Positions 12,298 through 26,902 of a DNA stretch of 35,010 bases are shown here, piece after piece. The stretch is from a virus (taxonomy: Duplodnaviria; Heunggongvirae; Uroviricota; Caudoviricetes). Positions within the stretch are counted from its first letter, which is position 1, and each line of letters opens with the position of its first letter. Made by a program: the position numbers and the translations under genes. The notes beneath the pieces were generated by a model. That model did not search any database, was not told where the DNA came from, and worked only from the letters and a program-made list of their open reading frames with translations. The stretch lies in IMG/VR virus record IMGVR_UViG_3300045988_019110, positions 1 to 35,010 of that record; one strand, written 5' to 3'.

Positions 12298-15200
12298 TTA
12301 CTTGGCATAACGTTTTAACTCCTGACCTTCTGCTACAAGAGGAAACCCCTCGGCCCATTCCGGTAATTCACACATCAACCGCTCGAGTTCAGCGACATTG
12401 TATTCCGGCGCATCTGGAGTTTCGCACACCAGTTCATCGTGTACCGAGAGTACGATAGGATACCCACCACGCTCAACGTTAATCATCGCATAGGCAAGTA
12501 AATCACGGCACAGCGCCTGAACAATGTTTTCGCAGGCCTTGCCGCCGTGTGTGTACAGGGTAGTCCATTGGCGGGTTAACTGGTTTTCGCCTTGATACTT
12601 GATTCGCACATTCGTGTTTACCCGTCCGTCTTCATCTGTTTCCTTTGTCACACTAACCCCGATTCCCGGATAGGAAAGGATACGACCTGACGGCAACTCC
12701 ATACACAACCACCAACCCGGAACCTTCCTGCCGGATGAATCAAATTCTACAGTGCGCCATATGCGGATAGCCCTTTCCCCGTTCCTGCGCAAGTGCGCTC
12801 CCGCCCAAAATTCACGACCAGGGTTACGAACAGCGGCTAAAATTCCGTCTTTAAGGTCGCGCCAGAAAGCTACTGTTTCCGGGTGTGACTCGCGCCACAT
12901 ACGCTTGATCGCGTCGCATGTGCGCCACACTTTCTTGTCCAGAATATACGACGGTCGGTCGTCCTTTTCGCCCGGATGCGGCGGTCGCTTTGCTTCCTGG
13001 ATACGCGCCCACTCATAACCGCGTGCGGTAGCTGCCCATATGTGGTCAGGGAATGTACCGTCCATTGTTTTAGCCATCTCAATAAGGTCGAGGCCTAAGT
13101 TTTTGGCGAACGTAACGAACGCTCCGACACCCCCCTCATAGCCTAGGCCAAGCTCGCAGTTATGCGCCACAAGAAAGCCAGAGTCTGAGGCTATAAGAAA
13201 ACGGTTGCCGTCTTCCACATCAATCAGGTCGTACACCGGCTCGCAGTAGGTTAATTTCCCGCTCAAGTTCAGCAATGCGGGCAACGGCTGCATCGTACTT
13301 TCGTTGAAGCTCGGGTATTTGCCGTCTGTTTCGGCAGTTTTCAGAACGGCTGACAAACCGAATGTTTCCAGGTTCGTAGTTACCGTCTGTGTCGATTCTA
13401 TCCATTTCGAGGTTCGGGTCATCCCAGCCTTCCAGAGTTTGAACATATCTAAGAAAAGACCTTTTATCAGTCCTCCACTGGTCGAATACCGTGATGCCTC
13501 TTGCCCCGTAGTTTTTATAACCCTTATCCCTGGGGCTTGTTGTTCGCGTGATCGCCGCTGACAGCCGGTTGAGTAATCGCGTTCTGTGCGCATCATCCGG
13601 CATTGCGTCTTCGTAGCAGAAATACTGTTTACGATATTTTTTTGTTGCTTCAAGGGCGCAGCGGTTGCATTGAGTGGTTTTACCAGCTCTGACGTTGTCA
13701 TAATAGACCCGCCCCGGCATCTCTCCGCAATCACATTGGACGAGTAGTTGTCTTTGGCCTTGTCGTTTTGGTAACTCGCGCAGGATAACCAAGCGTCCAT
13801 ACCTCTCTCCAGGGCGAGGCCCATCATATATCTGTTTGAAGCGAGTTGCTTTGCCTGCTTCCAGGAATGCGCCAAGATTTTGTGGTCTTCGGTCATTAGC
13901 ACCCCGTCCACATTTATTACCGGTTTCCACCCCATAAGGTGCGCGCCTTTTGTATTCACCCATTTTTCACCGCTCCATACTTTATCTGTTGATGTAACCG
14001 CCATAATATCCTTAAATCCGCCATTGGTCAAAACTTGGGTATGGCGGTGAAGGCAGGCCTTACCAATCTGGCGTAAATCTTTACGTTCCTTCTTAATGTC
14101 GTCTGGGTCCATTCCGAACATCTTGCCCGCGGTTACACAATAAATGTCCAGTCCGGCACGGAACGTATCGAGCGCGGTTTCTTCACCTGCCAGCCACGCA
14201 AGTCCGCGGCCTTCAACGTTAGAGTAATCGGCAACAACAAACTTATGTCCTGCTTCCGGTATGATGCAGCTGCGAACCGTCGATGCCGTTAGCTTGGCTA
14301 CGTCAAATCGGCGGTGAGCACGACCCTTAAGTAACGCTGAAATGCCTTTATCCAGTTCATCATCATGATAGTACCCGCGGGCCAAGTTCTGCGGCTGGAA
14401 GCCTTTACCTGCCCATCGCAGAGTACGTTTTGCCCCACCGTACTGCAGGCAACCGCGACGGCGGTCGTCCGACGAGCGGCCTAACAGCAATGGGTTGTAT
14501 TTCGTGGACGCTGTTGACGCGGCACCGAGGCGCATTTCGATAATCGTACGGGCATCGTCCGGTAAATCATCGTCCGCCAACAGGTCATTCAGCGTCGACT
14601 TCTGTGCGTTGTGGATGCGGTGTGCGGGGGCAAGTTCACGCAGAATAGGTAGAAAGTCTTTACCAGTAAGTGAGCCGCCGTATTTGCGTTGGGCTTCTTC
14701 CTGTAACTGCGCTTTGTGTTTCTCCACAGCTTCAATCGCGGCTTCCGCCAGTGCAACGTCAACCTTAAACCCACGGTCATTGATTAACTGGTCCAGCTCC
14801 AGTACACGGTCCTCGAACTCTGAGTTACCCCACCGCGGCAGTTTATGGAAGACTTCACGCATCGCAGTGATGTCGCTCACGGCGTACTTGATGAACAGTG
14901 CCCACTCGTCCGGGTGTGTTTCGGCGGTGTAACGGCGGATTTTGTAGTTCTTCGGCGTCGGTTTAGAAAAACGCTTAATCAGCGCCTTGCCGCGTTTATC
15001 TTTCGCGTTGTCCGCGGATACACCCAGCACTTCACATAGCGCATCAAGCGAACCTGGTAGCGCGTGACGAAACGCCCAAATCATCGTATCAATGGTGTTG
15101 CTTACAGGAATGTCAAAGCCCCAGCAGTGCTTCATGATGAGCCTGTCGAACATTGAGCCGTTGTGCCACACCATCTTGATGCGGCTGTTTGGCTTAACCA

Positions 15201-15396
15201 GGCGGCGCAAGGCGCGATGCAAATCCCCCGGCATGTCGCTGCCGTCGGTGCAGTCCCATACCTGCACAGGCTCGTCGTCAAAAGCATAGGTACAGATAAG
15301 CACTTCTGTAGTCGGATGCTCGGCGTAAGCGTAGGAGCCGACTTTCTTTAAATTGGCTTCGGAGAATGTTTCAAAGTCTAAGAACAGGTAACTCAT
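12298..15396 (-). CDS. DNA polymerase, family A, with 3'-5' exonuclease domain; intein-containing
   Basis: 1032-aa ORF; N-terminal exo motif LFLDFETFS; motif A VVADYSNVEGRGLAW; motif B split as RQIGKA / CELGLGYEGG by a ~299-aa insertion with intein hallmarks. Confidence 0.85.
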   Translation of the reverse strand: MSYLFLDFETFSEANLKKVGSYAYAEHPTTEVLICTYAFDDEPVQVWDCTDGSDMPGDLHRALRRLVKPNSRIKMVWHNGSMFDRLIMKHCWGFDIPVSNTIDTMIWAFRHALPGSLDALCEVLGVSADNAKDKRGKALIKRFSKPTPKNYKIRRYTAETHPDEWALFIKYAVSDITAMREVFHKLPRWGNSEFEDRVLELDQLINDRGFKVDVALAEAAIEAVEKHKAQLQEEAQRKYGGSLTGKDFLPILRELAPAHRIHNAQKSTLNDLLADDDLPDDARTIIEMRLGAASTASTKYNPLLLGRSSDDRRRGCLQYGGAKRTLRWAGKGFQPQNLARGYYHDDELDKGISALLKGRAHRRFDVAKLTASTVRSCIIPEAGHKFVVADYSNVEGRGLAWLAGEETALDTFRAGLDIYCVTAGKMFGMDPDDIKKERKDLRQIGKACLHRHTQVLTNGGFKDIMAVTSTDKVWSGEKWVNTKGAHLMGWKPVINVDGVLMTEDHKILAHSWKQAKQLASNRYMMGLALERGMDAWLSCASYQNDKAKDNYSSNVIAERCRGGSIMTTSELVKPLNATAAPLKQQKNIVNSISATKTQCRMMRTERDYSTGCQRRSREQQAPGIRVIKTTGQEASRYSTSGGLIKGLFLDMFKLWKAGMTRTSKWIESTQTVTTNLETFGLSAVLKTAETDGKYPSFNESTMQPLPALLNLSGKLTYCEPVYDLIDVEDGNRFLIASDSGFLVAHNCELGLGYEGGVGAFVTFAKNLGLDLIEMAKTMDGTFPDHIWAATARGYEWARIQEAKRPPHPGEKDDRPSYILDKKVWRTCDAIKRMWRESHPETVAFWRDLKDGILAAVRNPGREFWAGAHLRRNGERAIRIWRTVEFDSSGRKVPGWWLCMELPSGRILSYPGIGVSVTKETDEDGRVNTNVRIKYQGENQLTRQWTTLYTHGGKACENIVQALCRDLLAYAMINVERGGYPIVLSVHDELVCETPDAPEYNVAELERLMCELPEWAEGFPLVAEGQELKRYAK
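13159..14055 (-). other. intein inserted in PolA motif B
   Basis: Pol-frame residues 448-746: N-terminal CLHRHTQVLT (block A), LMTEDHKIL (block B), C-terminal VYDLIDVEDGNRFLIA...FLVAHN followed by +1 Cys (blocks F/G). Confidence 0.65.
13220..13963 (-). CDS. HNH endonuclease-like ORF nested inside the intein in an alternate reading frame
   Basis: 247-aa ORF, different frame from the polymerase; ATG with GGAG 9 nt upstream; motifs GRLVIL...CDCGEM...CNRC and YKNYGARGITVFDQW...DRIDTDGNYEPGNIRFVSRSEN. Confidence 0.5.
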   Translation of the reverse strand: MGEYKRRAPYGVETGNKCGRGANDRRPQNLGAFLEAGKATRFKQIYDGPRPGERYGRLVILRELPKRQGQRQLLVQCDCGEMPGRVYYDNVRAGKTTQCNRCALEATKKYRKQYFCYEDAMPDDAHRTRLLNRLSAAITRTTSPRDKGYKNYGARGITVFDQWRTDKRSFLRYVQTLEGWDDPNLEMDRIDTDGNYEPGNIRFVSRSENCRNRRQIPELQRKYDAAVARIAELEREINLLRAGVRPD

Positions 15397-23535: not shown

Positions 23536-23797
23536 AAGCTACACCGTTACCGTTGATTTTGAGGGGCTGGAATTGCCCCTCCCAAATAACTATCGGTATA
23601 TAACCCGTGACCGTTTCGGATTTATCCAGGGGTGGAGGAACAAACCAACAGACACTGAGTTTGGGATGTCGGGCGGAGAAGAGATGCCGATCACTTTCGG
23701 GCATCAGAGTAGCAACGAAGAACTTAAAACGGTTATTCGTAAGTATCGCCGCCGCGGTAACACCGGCCTTATAGCGATAACAGGCGCTGTTGAATAA
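23519..23797 (+). CDS. hypothetical protein
   Basis: 92-aa ORF (track start TTG; ATG at 23525 is an alternative start). Confidence 0.4.
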   Translation: MTMNFRSYTVTVDFEGLELPLPNNYRYITRDRFGFIQGWRNKPTDTEFGMSGGEEMPITFGHQSSNEELKTVIRKYRRRGNTGLIAITGAVE

Positions 23798-23816
23798 ACG
23801 AGAGGAGAGACAGAAG

Positions 23817-24503
23817 ATGAGTAGCAAAAACGAAGTATTCGAGTACCTGATTGACCAGTTACGGCAGCAGGTAACTAAGAAAGATGTCATATCTTTCAAT
23901 GTGTCTGTGCGTATATCCGACCTTGATGATGTCAAGCAGGTAATTCACAACCTACAGCAGCATATCGCCGGTAAGGACGATGAAATACGAGCGCTGAAAG
24001 ACAGTTTACGGCAGCAGGTAAATAACAGTCCGTACAAGCAACAGTGCGAAGACCTGGCGCATGAGGTGCAGTCACTCAAGAATCAGTTACGTGATGCGTC
24101 GGCGCGGATTAAGGAACTAACCTGTGCGCTGGATTGCGCTGAAAACGAGGTTATGTGTCTTCGTTCAATCGTTGACCTGGACCCTAAAGGCGCGATTGGG
24201 TACATCCGGCGGGCAAATAGTGCAATGACTGACATCCTGCGCCGCCAATACCTTAGCAAAGCACTTGAGGAACTCGGATGTAAGGATGCGCCAGAACAAT
24301 CCGGTCGCAGAAAAGAAGATACTCAGGGATGCGGGCATGACTGGGTTCTGGATGAAAAAGGGGACTACTTCGTTTGTGCTAAATGCGGTGAGCAAGAAGC
24401 TGAATTAGTTGATTGCCGGCACACTAATACCGTAGGTTTGCGTAAAGGTTTCGCCCCAGGGTTTACTAAAAAGTGTCTGGATTGCGGGGCTAAACTTAAA
24501 TGA
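23817..24503 (+). CDS. coiled-coil protein with C-terminal Cys-rich zinc-ribbon-like motifs
   Basis: Start re-set to ATG at 23817 with GAGGAGAG RBS; heptad-rich middle; CGHDW...CAKCG...C...CLDCG at C-terminus. Confidence 0.5.
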   Translation: MSSKNEVFEYLIDQLRQQVTKKDVISFNVSVRISDLDDVKQVIHNLQQHIAGKDDEIRALKDSLRQQVNNSPYKQQCEDLAHEVQSLKNQLRDASARIKELTCALDCAENEVMCLRSIVDLDPKGAIGYIRRANSAMTDILRRQYLSKALEELGCKDAPEQSGRRKEDTQGCGHDWVLDEKGDYFVCAKCGEQEAELVDCRHTNTVGLRKGFAPGFTKKCLDCGAKLK

Positions 24504-24882: not shown

Positions 24883-25076
24883 TGGTACAGAGATATGAGG
24901 TGAACGCGTGGGGCCGGCCAGAGCCTGAGATGGTTAAGTACGCATATGGGGATTATGTAGAATATGATGATTATCTTAAACTCGAAGCAAAATTACGTGA
25001 ATTCGCTGAACAGGTAATGTATGAACCTTGTTCTAAAGTTACTGAAGAGATGGCGCGTGAGATTCTCGGTATATGA
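24882..25076 (+). CDS. hypothetical protein, paralog B (MVQRY family)
   Basis: ATG at 24882 overlaps upstream stop (TGATG); N-terminus MVQRYEVNAW; tandem paralog of 24700..24882. Confidence 0.4.
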   Translation: MVQRYEVNAWGRPEPEMVKYAYGDYVEYDDYLKLEAKLREFAEQVMYEPCSKVTEEMAREILGI

Positions 25077-25366
25077 GCCTTGCAACTGACATCCTGAAAC
25101 GAAGCGGCATTGCGCCGCTGTCGCCGAGAGCTAAAACGCAGATATACAAGCGACGTCGTAACGCGCTGTACCCTGAGATTCAGGCCAGACGCAAAGTAGT
25201 CCGCGCCTGTGGGTTCCAGAACGGGAAGGCCGTGAATCTCGGTGAGTTTAAAACAAAGGAACGCGCGGCAATCGCTAACCGGTTATTTAATTACTGGAAA
25301 TCGCTGGGATACGATGATATTCCGACGAAACCACAGAGACGACAATACATCTGGAGACATAAATGA
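25073..25366 (+). CDS. hypothetical basic protein
   Basis: 97-aa Arg/Lys-rich ORF, coupled to the downstream gene (ATGA). Confidence 0.45.
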   Translation: MSLATDILKRSGIAPLSPRAKTQIYKRRRNALYPEIQARRKVVRACGFQNGKAVNLGEFKTKERAAIANRLFNYWKSLGYDDIPTKPQRRQYIWRHK

Positions 25367-25803
25367 CTACTATCGCGTTCGATGGAAAGACAATGGCCTG
25401 TGACACGCGTGTTGTGTGCGGAAGTAACTGCTACAACACAGACACAAAGATTTACGAGAATGAGTTTGTTGTTATTGGGGTGGCCGGAGATGCGGGGGTT
25501 GGTATCCTTTTAGTGAAGGACGACGGTATTCTTCGACCACAGCCCTACGACTTCGATTTCGAAGCCCTGGTGTTCGTGAAAGACACAGAAAAAGTGTATA
25601 AAGTCGCGTTTTATAAATCGTGGGATTGTGCGCTTAGTTCGGTTATCCCTGTTGCTGATGTGTACGCCGCCGTAGGGTCTGGCTCGCCATATGCCCCGGC
25701 GGCTATGTACTTAGGTCATACAGCGACACGTGCGATTACTGTAGCCTCCCAATTCGACACTAACACCGGAGGCAAGATTATTGTCAAACCGTTATTAGGA
25801 TAA
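25363..25803 (+). CDS. HslV/proteasome beta-subunit-like Ntn-hydrolase peptidase
   Basis: 146 aa; N-terminal MTTIAF (Thr nucleophile position), VVIGVAGDAG and AVGSGSPYAPAA motifs closely mirroring HslV KVIAGFAGG and AIGSGGPYAQAA. Confidence 0.55.
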   Translation: MTTIAFDGKTMACDTRVVCGSNCYNTDTKIYENEFVVIGVAGDAGVGILLVKDDGILRPQPYDFDFEALVFVKDTEKVYKVAFYKSWDCALSSVIPVADVYAAVGSGSPYAPAAMYLGHTATRAITVASQFDTNTGGKIIVKPLLG

Positions 25804-25862
25804 TTCCTACACGTGGTATCCTCCAGTTACTGCATACTTAATACGCACCTGGAGGATTCATC

Positions 25863-26171
25863 TTGGATAAATTTACTGAAACAGTGACAGGCTGGCTTCT
25901 CGCTGCCGCGCTAGCCGGAGGGGTAATCGGACTACGACAACATAAGTCCGTTATTTCTGGCCCCATCGACGGCTTCTGCTTTATTGCAACTGGCTTCACT
26001 TGCGCCGTATTTGGCGCACCTCTGGCAGCTCAATGGTTCGGTATCACGGGTGACCGTGAAATCGCGGGCCTGGGCTTCATCATTGCCATTCTCTGGATGC
26101 CTATCTATTCCCGCCTTTCTGGCATCGTCGCCGGAGAATACATCGCACGTCGAGGAGGCCCGGATGAATGA
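25863..26171 (+). CDS. holin-like membrane protein
   Basis: 102 aa with predicted transmembrane helices; TTG start with GGAGGA RBS; immediately upstream of endolysin region. Confidence 0.45.
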   Translation: MDKFTETVTGWLLAAALAGGVIGLRQHKSVISGPIDGFCFIATGFTCAVFGAPLAAQWFGITGDREIAGLGFIIAILWMPIYSRLSGIVAGEYIARRGGPDE

Positions 26172-26436
26172 GTTATTCTGGTTCGGCGGTATGCTGGCAA
26201 TCGGAGGCACATCGCTGTTTAATGTATACCACTCCAGCGTTGACGACGGACTATTTGGTAGGGTGCTCTATATCCTGACCGCTATTGTCTGTGCCGCCGG
26301 ATGTATCCACCTGTTACAGGGCAGCATGTCGCCCACGCTGCCAGAGACATTAATCACATTAGTTGCGCTGCGTCAGATTCGCCAGGCGTGGCTGGCATAC
26401 GGAGGACATAAGCGTGTCTCGAAACATTTCAGATAA
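26164..26436 (+). CDS. membrane protein (second holin / antiholin candidate)
   Basis: ATG at 26164 overlapping upstream stop; two hydrophobic segments (FWFGGMLAIGGTSLF, VLYILTAIVCAAGCI). Confidence 0.4.
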   Translation: MNELFWFGGMLAIGGTSLFNVYHSSVDDGLFGRVLYILTAIVCAAGCIHLLQGSMSPTLPETLITLVALRQIRQAWLAYGGHKRVSKHFR

Positions 26437-26902
26437 TGGGCTGCATTTCACCGCCGCATTTGAGGGGTTCCGGGGAACTGCGTATCGCGCTACGCCGAAC
26501 GAAAAGTACCTGACTATCGGGTACGGTCACTACGGCCCAGACGTAACACCCGGTAAGACCATCACACCGGGGCAGGGCCTCCTGTTACTGAATCGCGATA
26601 TGGCTAAGGCCGTGGCTGCGGTTGATGCAGCAGCGCACCATTCGCTGACACAGGCGCAGTTCGACGCGGTGTGTGACCTGGTCTATAACGCGGGTGCTGG
26701 TGTGATTGGGGTTAATACTGGCACGGGTAAGGCGCTGCGTTCTGGTGATATTGCGACGCTGCGTGCTAAGCTGGCGCTGTTTATCAACCAGAACGGCAAA
26801 CCGCTACTAGGCCTGCGTCGCCGTACTGCGGGTCGGCTGGCGCTGTTCGACGGTAAACCGTGGCAGGAGGCTGAGGCTATTGGGCGCGCGGTGAAAGGTT
26901 GA
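26414..26902 (+). CDS. endolysin, T4-lysozyme-like (GH24-type) muramidase
   Basis: GTG start with GGAGGA RBS; EGFRGTAYRATPNEKYLTIGYGHYG motif typical of phage lysozymes. Confidence 0.65.
   Translation: MSRNISDNGLHFTAAFEGFRGTAYRATPNEKYLTIGYGHYGPDVTPGKTITPGQGLLLLNRDMAKAVAAVDAAAHHSLTQAQFDAVCDLVYNAGAGVIGVNTGTGKALRSGDIATLRAKLALFINQNGKPLLGLRRRTAGRLALFDGKPWQEAEAIGRAVKG

Follow-up and report, generated by a model that had tools for sequence, protein, structure and literature searches.

Threonine proteases of the proteasome type are, as a rule, compartmentalised machines of cells. Their homologues were surveyed by Fuchs, Alva, and Lupas (2021; PMC8665760), who described PPH, a family of about 140 residues that occurs in Caudovirales and in prophage regions and is placed in group I, radiating from BPH alongside HslV. 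PPH has neither a propeptide nor the S12/H5 elements, and helix H2 is absent uniquely in PPH and RPC (PMC8665760). Here we describe a gene of this type on a 35,010-nucleotide stretch of viral DNA (IMG/VR record IMGVR_UViG_3300045988_019110, positions 1 to 35,010; hereafter the window), which belongs to a Kagunavirus-like siphophage of the Guernseyvirinae. A first-pass annotation made from the sequence alone had proposed that the 146-residue product is an HslV/proteasome-like Ntn-hydrolase, and profile and structure comparison agree on that fold. The protein is a PPH, and we consider it likely that this minimal proteasome beta/HslV member works as a stand-alone threonine peptidase that is independent of HslU.

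The assignment rests on all the descriptive criteria of the survey (PMC8665760) together with PHROG 1040, the published PPH set having been compared by description, and the phage protein differs from PPH in nothing of kind. Its 146 residues (also the median length of the family), MT start and absent propeptide all fit. Its model finishes with a strand at residues 139-143 after H3/H4, leaving no C-terminal S12/H5, and helix H2 is likewise missing, both by DSSP of the model and as a gap against HslV. The Thr/Asp/Lys triad and the Gly oxyanion position are common to both, and for both the nearest relatives are BPH and HslV. PPH occurs in tailed phages whose hosts are Proteobacteria or belong to a few other phyla, and the Kagunavirus-like phage of the window fits this range. 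A relative is present in about 400 phage genome records, and relatives are known from phages of Salmonella, Escherichia, Pseudomonas, Rhizobium, Aeromonas, Erwinia, Vibrio, Brevundimonas and others.

Homologues are labelled in GenBank/RefSeq as 'peptidase HslV family', 'HslV family peptidase', 'ATP-dependent protease' or 'Ntn hydrolase domain protein' (SEP1_gp49 of Jerseyvirus Ent1 is an example of an annotated homologue), an identical protein bears a JGI HslV label, and BFVD contains 40 viral structure clusters with the same fold at E ≤ 1e-3. The family identification is already known from the 2021 description of PPH, from PHROG 1040 and from GenBank, and ours adds nothing beyond these; its value lies in the functional question. 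That a phage protein of 146 residues keeps an intact active site without the unfoldase-docking helices bears on the minimal functional proteasome fold and on the use that phages make of it. The family is large, and an initial study of its biochemistry or genetics would be of use.

Membership of the proteasome superfamily

The product reads MTTIAFDGKTMACDT...VVIGVAGDAG...AVGSGSPYAPAA...KPLLG, as quoted in the first-pass annotation. Searched as a single sequence, it matches PHROG 1040 ('peptidase HslV family') at E=4.5e-36, and the best proteasome chain in the PDB is found at E of about 0.7. An exhaustive profile search over 1.84 billion cluster representatives (50% identity) returned 253 representatives at E ≤ 1e-10 and 4,174 at E ≤ 1e-3, although the latter count may take in more distant proteasome-family proteins; among the matches listed, almost all are 135-165 residues long and aligned from residue 1. 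A profile of 132 diverse sequences, about 30-40% identical to the query and pre-selected for T or S at position 2, matched 206 distinct PDB sequences within a threshold of E ≤ 0.01, and every one of the 60 strongest is HslV, 20S beta or BPH (leading matches: Thermotoga maritima HslV, 5.2e-12; beta5, 1.3e-10; BPH, 1.6e-10). Individually, 79 of the 132 members match Pfam Proteasome, the best at 3e-11.

The parallel with Escherichia coli HslV that the first-pass annotation had drawn from short motifs is upheld. Specifically, hhalign against HslV from NC_000913.3 (97.4% probability, E=1.3e-11) places the quoted motifs onto the corresponding HslV motifs, and pairwise BLASTP also finds the GSG-PYA-AA block (E=8e-4), so that the likeness is not due to chance. 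The fold test gave the alpha-beta-beta-alpha Ntn fold of proteasome beta/HslV, and HslV is the best match by both sequence and structure. The usable structure model came only from the diverse 132-sequence alignment; a model from 25 close homologues (77-100% identical) had a pLDDT of 37.5 and a spurious all-beta fold, and was discarded. Neither of the NCBIfam HslV equivalogs, TIGR03692 (cut-off 157.75 bits) and NF003964 (cut-off 137 bits), matched at E ≤ 0.01. The protein belongs to the proteasome superfamily (peptidase family T1) and is not an HslV orthologue.

Within PPH, the members from Guernseyvirinae have the shortest H1 region (25 residues, Gly42-Ala68, against a family median of 32) and carry about eight extra, invariant residues in the stretch FYKSWDCALSS (residues 83-93; 25609-25641), which forms part of the S7/S8 hairpin before the GSG strand. 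This insertion is absent from most other family members, and its borderline match to a motif repeated in 4g9q is probably accidental. The latter, a 4-carboxymuconolactone decarboxylase, was the best single-sequence PDB match (E=0.008-0.014, residues 75-135) and was rejected as chance because it falls on the subfamily insertion, lies outside the best 60 matches of the diverse profile and finds no support in fold searches. A Pfam match to Malic_M (E=0.19) was noise.

Active site and departures from HslV

The first-pass annotation had placed weight on a Thr directly after the initiator Met. Both the start and this Thr are secure, because no in-frame start codon lies upstream of the ATG at 25363, a GGAGA Shine-Dalgarno sequence precedes it, the ATG shares ATGA (25363-25366) with the TGA stop of the preceding open reading frame, and 117 of 120 close homologues have the N-terminus MTTIAFDG. 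The ATGA overlap suggests translational coupling of the PPH gene to the upstream open reading frame. A start of MTAIAFDG, seen in one of the 120, is a rare inactive variant or a sequencing error.

The catalytic positions, of which the first-pass annotation had marked out Thr, Lys and Ser for a check of conservation, are retained almost throughout the diverse alignment (Table 1), and within Guernseyvirinae all of those listed are invariant. On this alignment the active site looks intact and under selection. At the C-terminal side, the D-x-x-T-G-G motif is closer to 20S beta (Asp166/Ser169/Gly170) than to HslV. Thr is permissive as second residue for removal of Met1 by methionine aminopeptidase, and E. 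coli HslV, which also starts MTT, matures through Met1 removal. By this established knowledge, the host methionine aminopeptidase would remove Met1 of the phage protein and thereby leave Thr2 at the N-terminus, with its alpha-amino group free, as the nucleophile. The other two members of the triad would be Lys29 and Asp14; the oxyanion hole would come from Gly42, and Ser106, Asp132 and Thr135 would brace the active site.

Outside the active site the departures from HslV are considerable. The protein is, as the first-pass annotation had noted, shorter than HslV (176 residues), by 30 residues. Between the AG motif and the strand that follows it, where HslV and 20S beta carry the two long helices H1 and H2, DSSP of the phage model finds a single six-residue helix (46-51) and no H2. 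Compared with HslV, the phage protein thus lacks H2 and half to most of H1, that is, the apical HslU-docking surface, and in the hhalign alignment HslV residues from about 59 to 79 are without counterpart. The C-terminal tails of HslU enter pockets between HslV subunits, and the pocket residues include Phe54 and Phe57 from H1 and Ala79 and Lys80 from H2 (PMC6429459). In the phage protein the H2 part of this pocket (Ala79, Lys80) and the end of H1 are deleted, while Phe54 and Phe57 align to the hydrophobic residues Ile48 and Val51. Among the larger relatives, BPH and 20S beta have 185-240 residues, both helix pairs and 14-mer double rings, and 20S beta additionally has propeptides and requires alpha rings, whereas the phage protein has no propeptide.

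The statement of the first-pass annotation that no HslU-like ATPase is present also stands. No HslU-like unfoldase is encoded in the window and, unlike the situation for HslV, no hslU gene adjoins the phage gene; nor does the annotation of the close relative Escherichia phage vB_Eco_K-01, a complete genome, list any gene of the HslU or ClpX type. The large open reading frames of the window encode DNA polymerase A, a PD-(D/E)XK nuclease, a helicase-primase (AAA_25), an SNF2 helicase, terminase, portal and a Mu F-like protein, and P-loop proteins are limited to the replicative helicase-primase and SNF2 helicases.

Because the apical helices that form the tail-binding pocket for HslU are missing, the enzyme probably works without HslU, as far as its anatomy can tell. 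On this view it is a threonine peptidase or amidase that acts alone in the cytoplasm and may have a non-canonical oligomeric state. It would be made before lysis, from a block of small accessory genes that ends just ahead of the lysis cassette, and its substrates would be host or phage proteins. A number of points weigh against this explanation. Proteasome-type subunits in isolation are usually inactive before assembly. One of the 120 close homologues begins MATIAFDG, a Thr2Ala change that is either an inactive variant or a sequencing error. The single 146-residue sequence reaches only 11.6 bits (E=0.21) against Pfam Proteasome (PF00227), for which the gathering score is 22.4, and a remnant of the HslU-docking surface may persist at Ile48/Val51, to judge by the alignment. 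Activity, oligomeric state and substrates are all inferred, and the searched literature holds no experimental study of any PPH or phage HslV-like member, only genome descriptions and the 2021 bioinformatic survey.

The stand-alone reading has a bolder form, which we regard as rather unlikely, in which the PPH of Guernseyvirinae would be the most reduced active proteasome-type enzyme known, with its first helix pair nearly gone and the invariant insertion of its subfamily, free of any unfoldase, assembled as a novel ring or as no ring at all, and cleaving during infection a specific host target (such as an immunity or stress-response protein) or a phage lysis regulator. Were this true, the conserved position of the gene at the early-to-lysis boundary would reflect timing control.

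Genomic neighbourhood and alternative explanations

The PPH gene closes a run of small same-strand genes, most of them without annotation, and a 2.5-kb segment around it matches 318 phage records at 80-99% identity, mostly from Salmonella and Escherichia phages. The coordinates of the gene, its catalytic codons and its neighbours are collected in Table 1.

Table 1. Positions of the PPH gene, its catalytic codons and flanking features in the window, with equivalent residues and conservation in the diverse alignment
Feature	Position	Strand	Equivalent	Conservation or remarks
97-residue upstream gene, function unassigned (phrog_9632)	25073..25366	+		Overlaps PPH start; part of the run of small same-strand genes
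Shine-Dalgarno GGAGA	25353..25357	+		5 nt ahead of PPH ATG, read from the sequence
PPH-type proteasome-family Ntn-hydrolase gene	25363..25803	+		ATG start, 146 residues
Thr2	25366-25368	+	HslV Thr1 (hhalign)	Alignment pre-selected for T/S; unbiased figure, MT start in 135/149 new, unselected representatives
Asp14	25402-25404	+	HslV Asp17 (hhalign)	130/132
Lys29	25447-25449	+	HslV Lys33 (hhalign)	132/132
Gly42	25486-25488	+	Second Gly of HslV FAGG; proteasome Gly47, assigned by motif position	131/132
Gly105-Ser106-Gly107	25675-25683	+	HslV Gly-Ser124-Gly; proteasome Ser129	Each Gly 132/132; residue 106 S in 121 and T in 8 of 132
Asp132, inside D-x-x-T-G-G	25756-25758	+	Asp166, assigned by motif position	126/132
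Hairpin between PPH stop and holin start	25813..25861	+		RNA fold -22.2 kcal/mol, z=-3.1
Holin	25863..26171	+		PHROGs 2359, 2508 for the two holins
Second holin	26164..26436	+		PHROGs 2359, 2508 for the two holins
GH24 lysozyme-type endolysin	26414..26902	+		PHROG 7/33703; Pfam Phage_lysozyme 2.4e-26

The first-pass annotation had set the gene next to the lysis cassette, and a holin-holin-endolysin cassette does lie directly downstream. The two are separated by a hairpin, where the PPH gene block gives way to the lysis cassette. The 3' arm of this hairpin sequesters the holin Shine-Dalgarno sequence GGAGGA (25851-25856), 6 nt ahead of a TTG start, and the hairpin sequence is identical in phage K-01. 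In Jerseyvirus Ent1, whose PPH protein is about 62% identical, the same position is occupied by a canonical terminator with a 12-bp stem and a U-run, annotated as such in the record. The hairpin may combine termination with translational control of holin expression. The 3' arm of the Ent1 terminator contains GGAGA ahead of the holin GTG.

The surroundings of the family in other phages were followed in eight annotated phage records. In Microbacterium phage WaterT and Pseudomonas phage Medea1 the member lies among small accessory genes upstream of terminase, in Medea1 next to a HicA-like gene; in DSL-LC04 it stands beside an HNH gene, in Salmonella phage SPAsTU beside a tRNA array, and in jumbo phages it is isolated. 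Across these eight records there is no recurring partner gene and no annotated lysis gene beside the family member. A place next to the lysis cassette is peculiar to Guernseyvirinae and is most simply accounted for by descent, and the lysis-side position carries little functional weight because a hairpin or terminator intervenes and the contexts in other phages are unrelated. PADLOC gave no match, and there is therefore no link to known defence systems.

One alternative is that the protein is a lysis accessory: either a second lytic enzyme that, once the holin has triggered, cuts the peptide stems of peptidoglycan, or a protease by which the timing of holin and antiholin is tuned. Amidases are known among Ntn hydrolases, and the gene keeps its place directly upstream of holin-holin-endolysin in both Kagunavirus and Jerseyvirus despite only about 62% protein identity; however, gene order common to one collinear subfamily is expected from descent alone, the stable hairpin of Kagunavirus and the annotated canonical terminator of Jerseyvirus set PPH apart from the holin, and the eight records from other phages offer no lysis gene beside it. 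We regard a lysis role as very unlikely. A place for the protein as the missing prohead maturation protease of these phages, which the first-pass annotation had already thought doubtful, is barely credible: although the complete genome of the close relative has no gene annotated as a prohead protease, PPH is encoded away from the head module, these phages have a scaffolding protein and heads of that design can often do without a protease, and the family is found in phages with very different head modules. We know of no prohead protease with an Ntn fold.

The first-pass annotation had left open a stand-alone peptidase and one that borrows the host HslU, and of these the former is favoured. In one version of the latter, the phage protein would replace or co-assemble with host HslV and be driven by host HslU, so that proteolysis in the host is redirected by a hybrid ATP-dependent protease. 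In its favour, hslVU is present in the host, E. coli, HslV is the best match in sequence and in structure, and the pocket residues Phe54 and Phe57 align to hydrophobic residues. The deletion in the phage protein of the stretch of HslV that bears residues of the HslU pocket argues against use of host HslU, which in its canonical form is unlikely, and we judge the hybrid protease improbable. It is highly improbable, too, that the protein is not a hydrolase in vivo, acting instead as a ligase or transpeptidase in the manner of connectase or as another non-proteolytic Ntn enzyme. The stand-alone, HslU-independent threonine peptidase is the explanation that we retain.

Other features of the window and of a close relative

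The small-gene block that contains PPH also encodes a 237-residue protein (23790-24503, plus strand; phrog_6094) with a coiled-coil-like middle and several C-terminal CxxC pairs. It has no Pfam match, and the CxxC pairs suggest a zinc ribbon. The complete genome of vB_Eco_K-01 has genes for a scaffolding protein and for head morphogenesis of the Mu F-like type, with no annotated prohead protease, and its Rz-like spanins are encoded within the head module, a long way from the holin-endolysin cassette.

The DNA polymerase A open reading frame (12298..15396, minus strand) encodes 1032 residues, compared with 750 in vB_Eco_K-01. By tblastn, an in-frame insertion of 299 residues (polymerase residues 447-745; 13162-14058, minus strand) falls exactly within the K-x-x-x-x-G-x-x-Y-G motif. 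Pfam detects no Hint or endonuclease domain in it at E ≤ 1. With Cys as its first residue (CLHRHTQVLT), TEDH further on and a terminal VAHN followed by Cys, the insert shows the classic signatures of intein blocks A, B and G, and it is probably a divergent intein.
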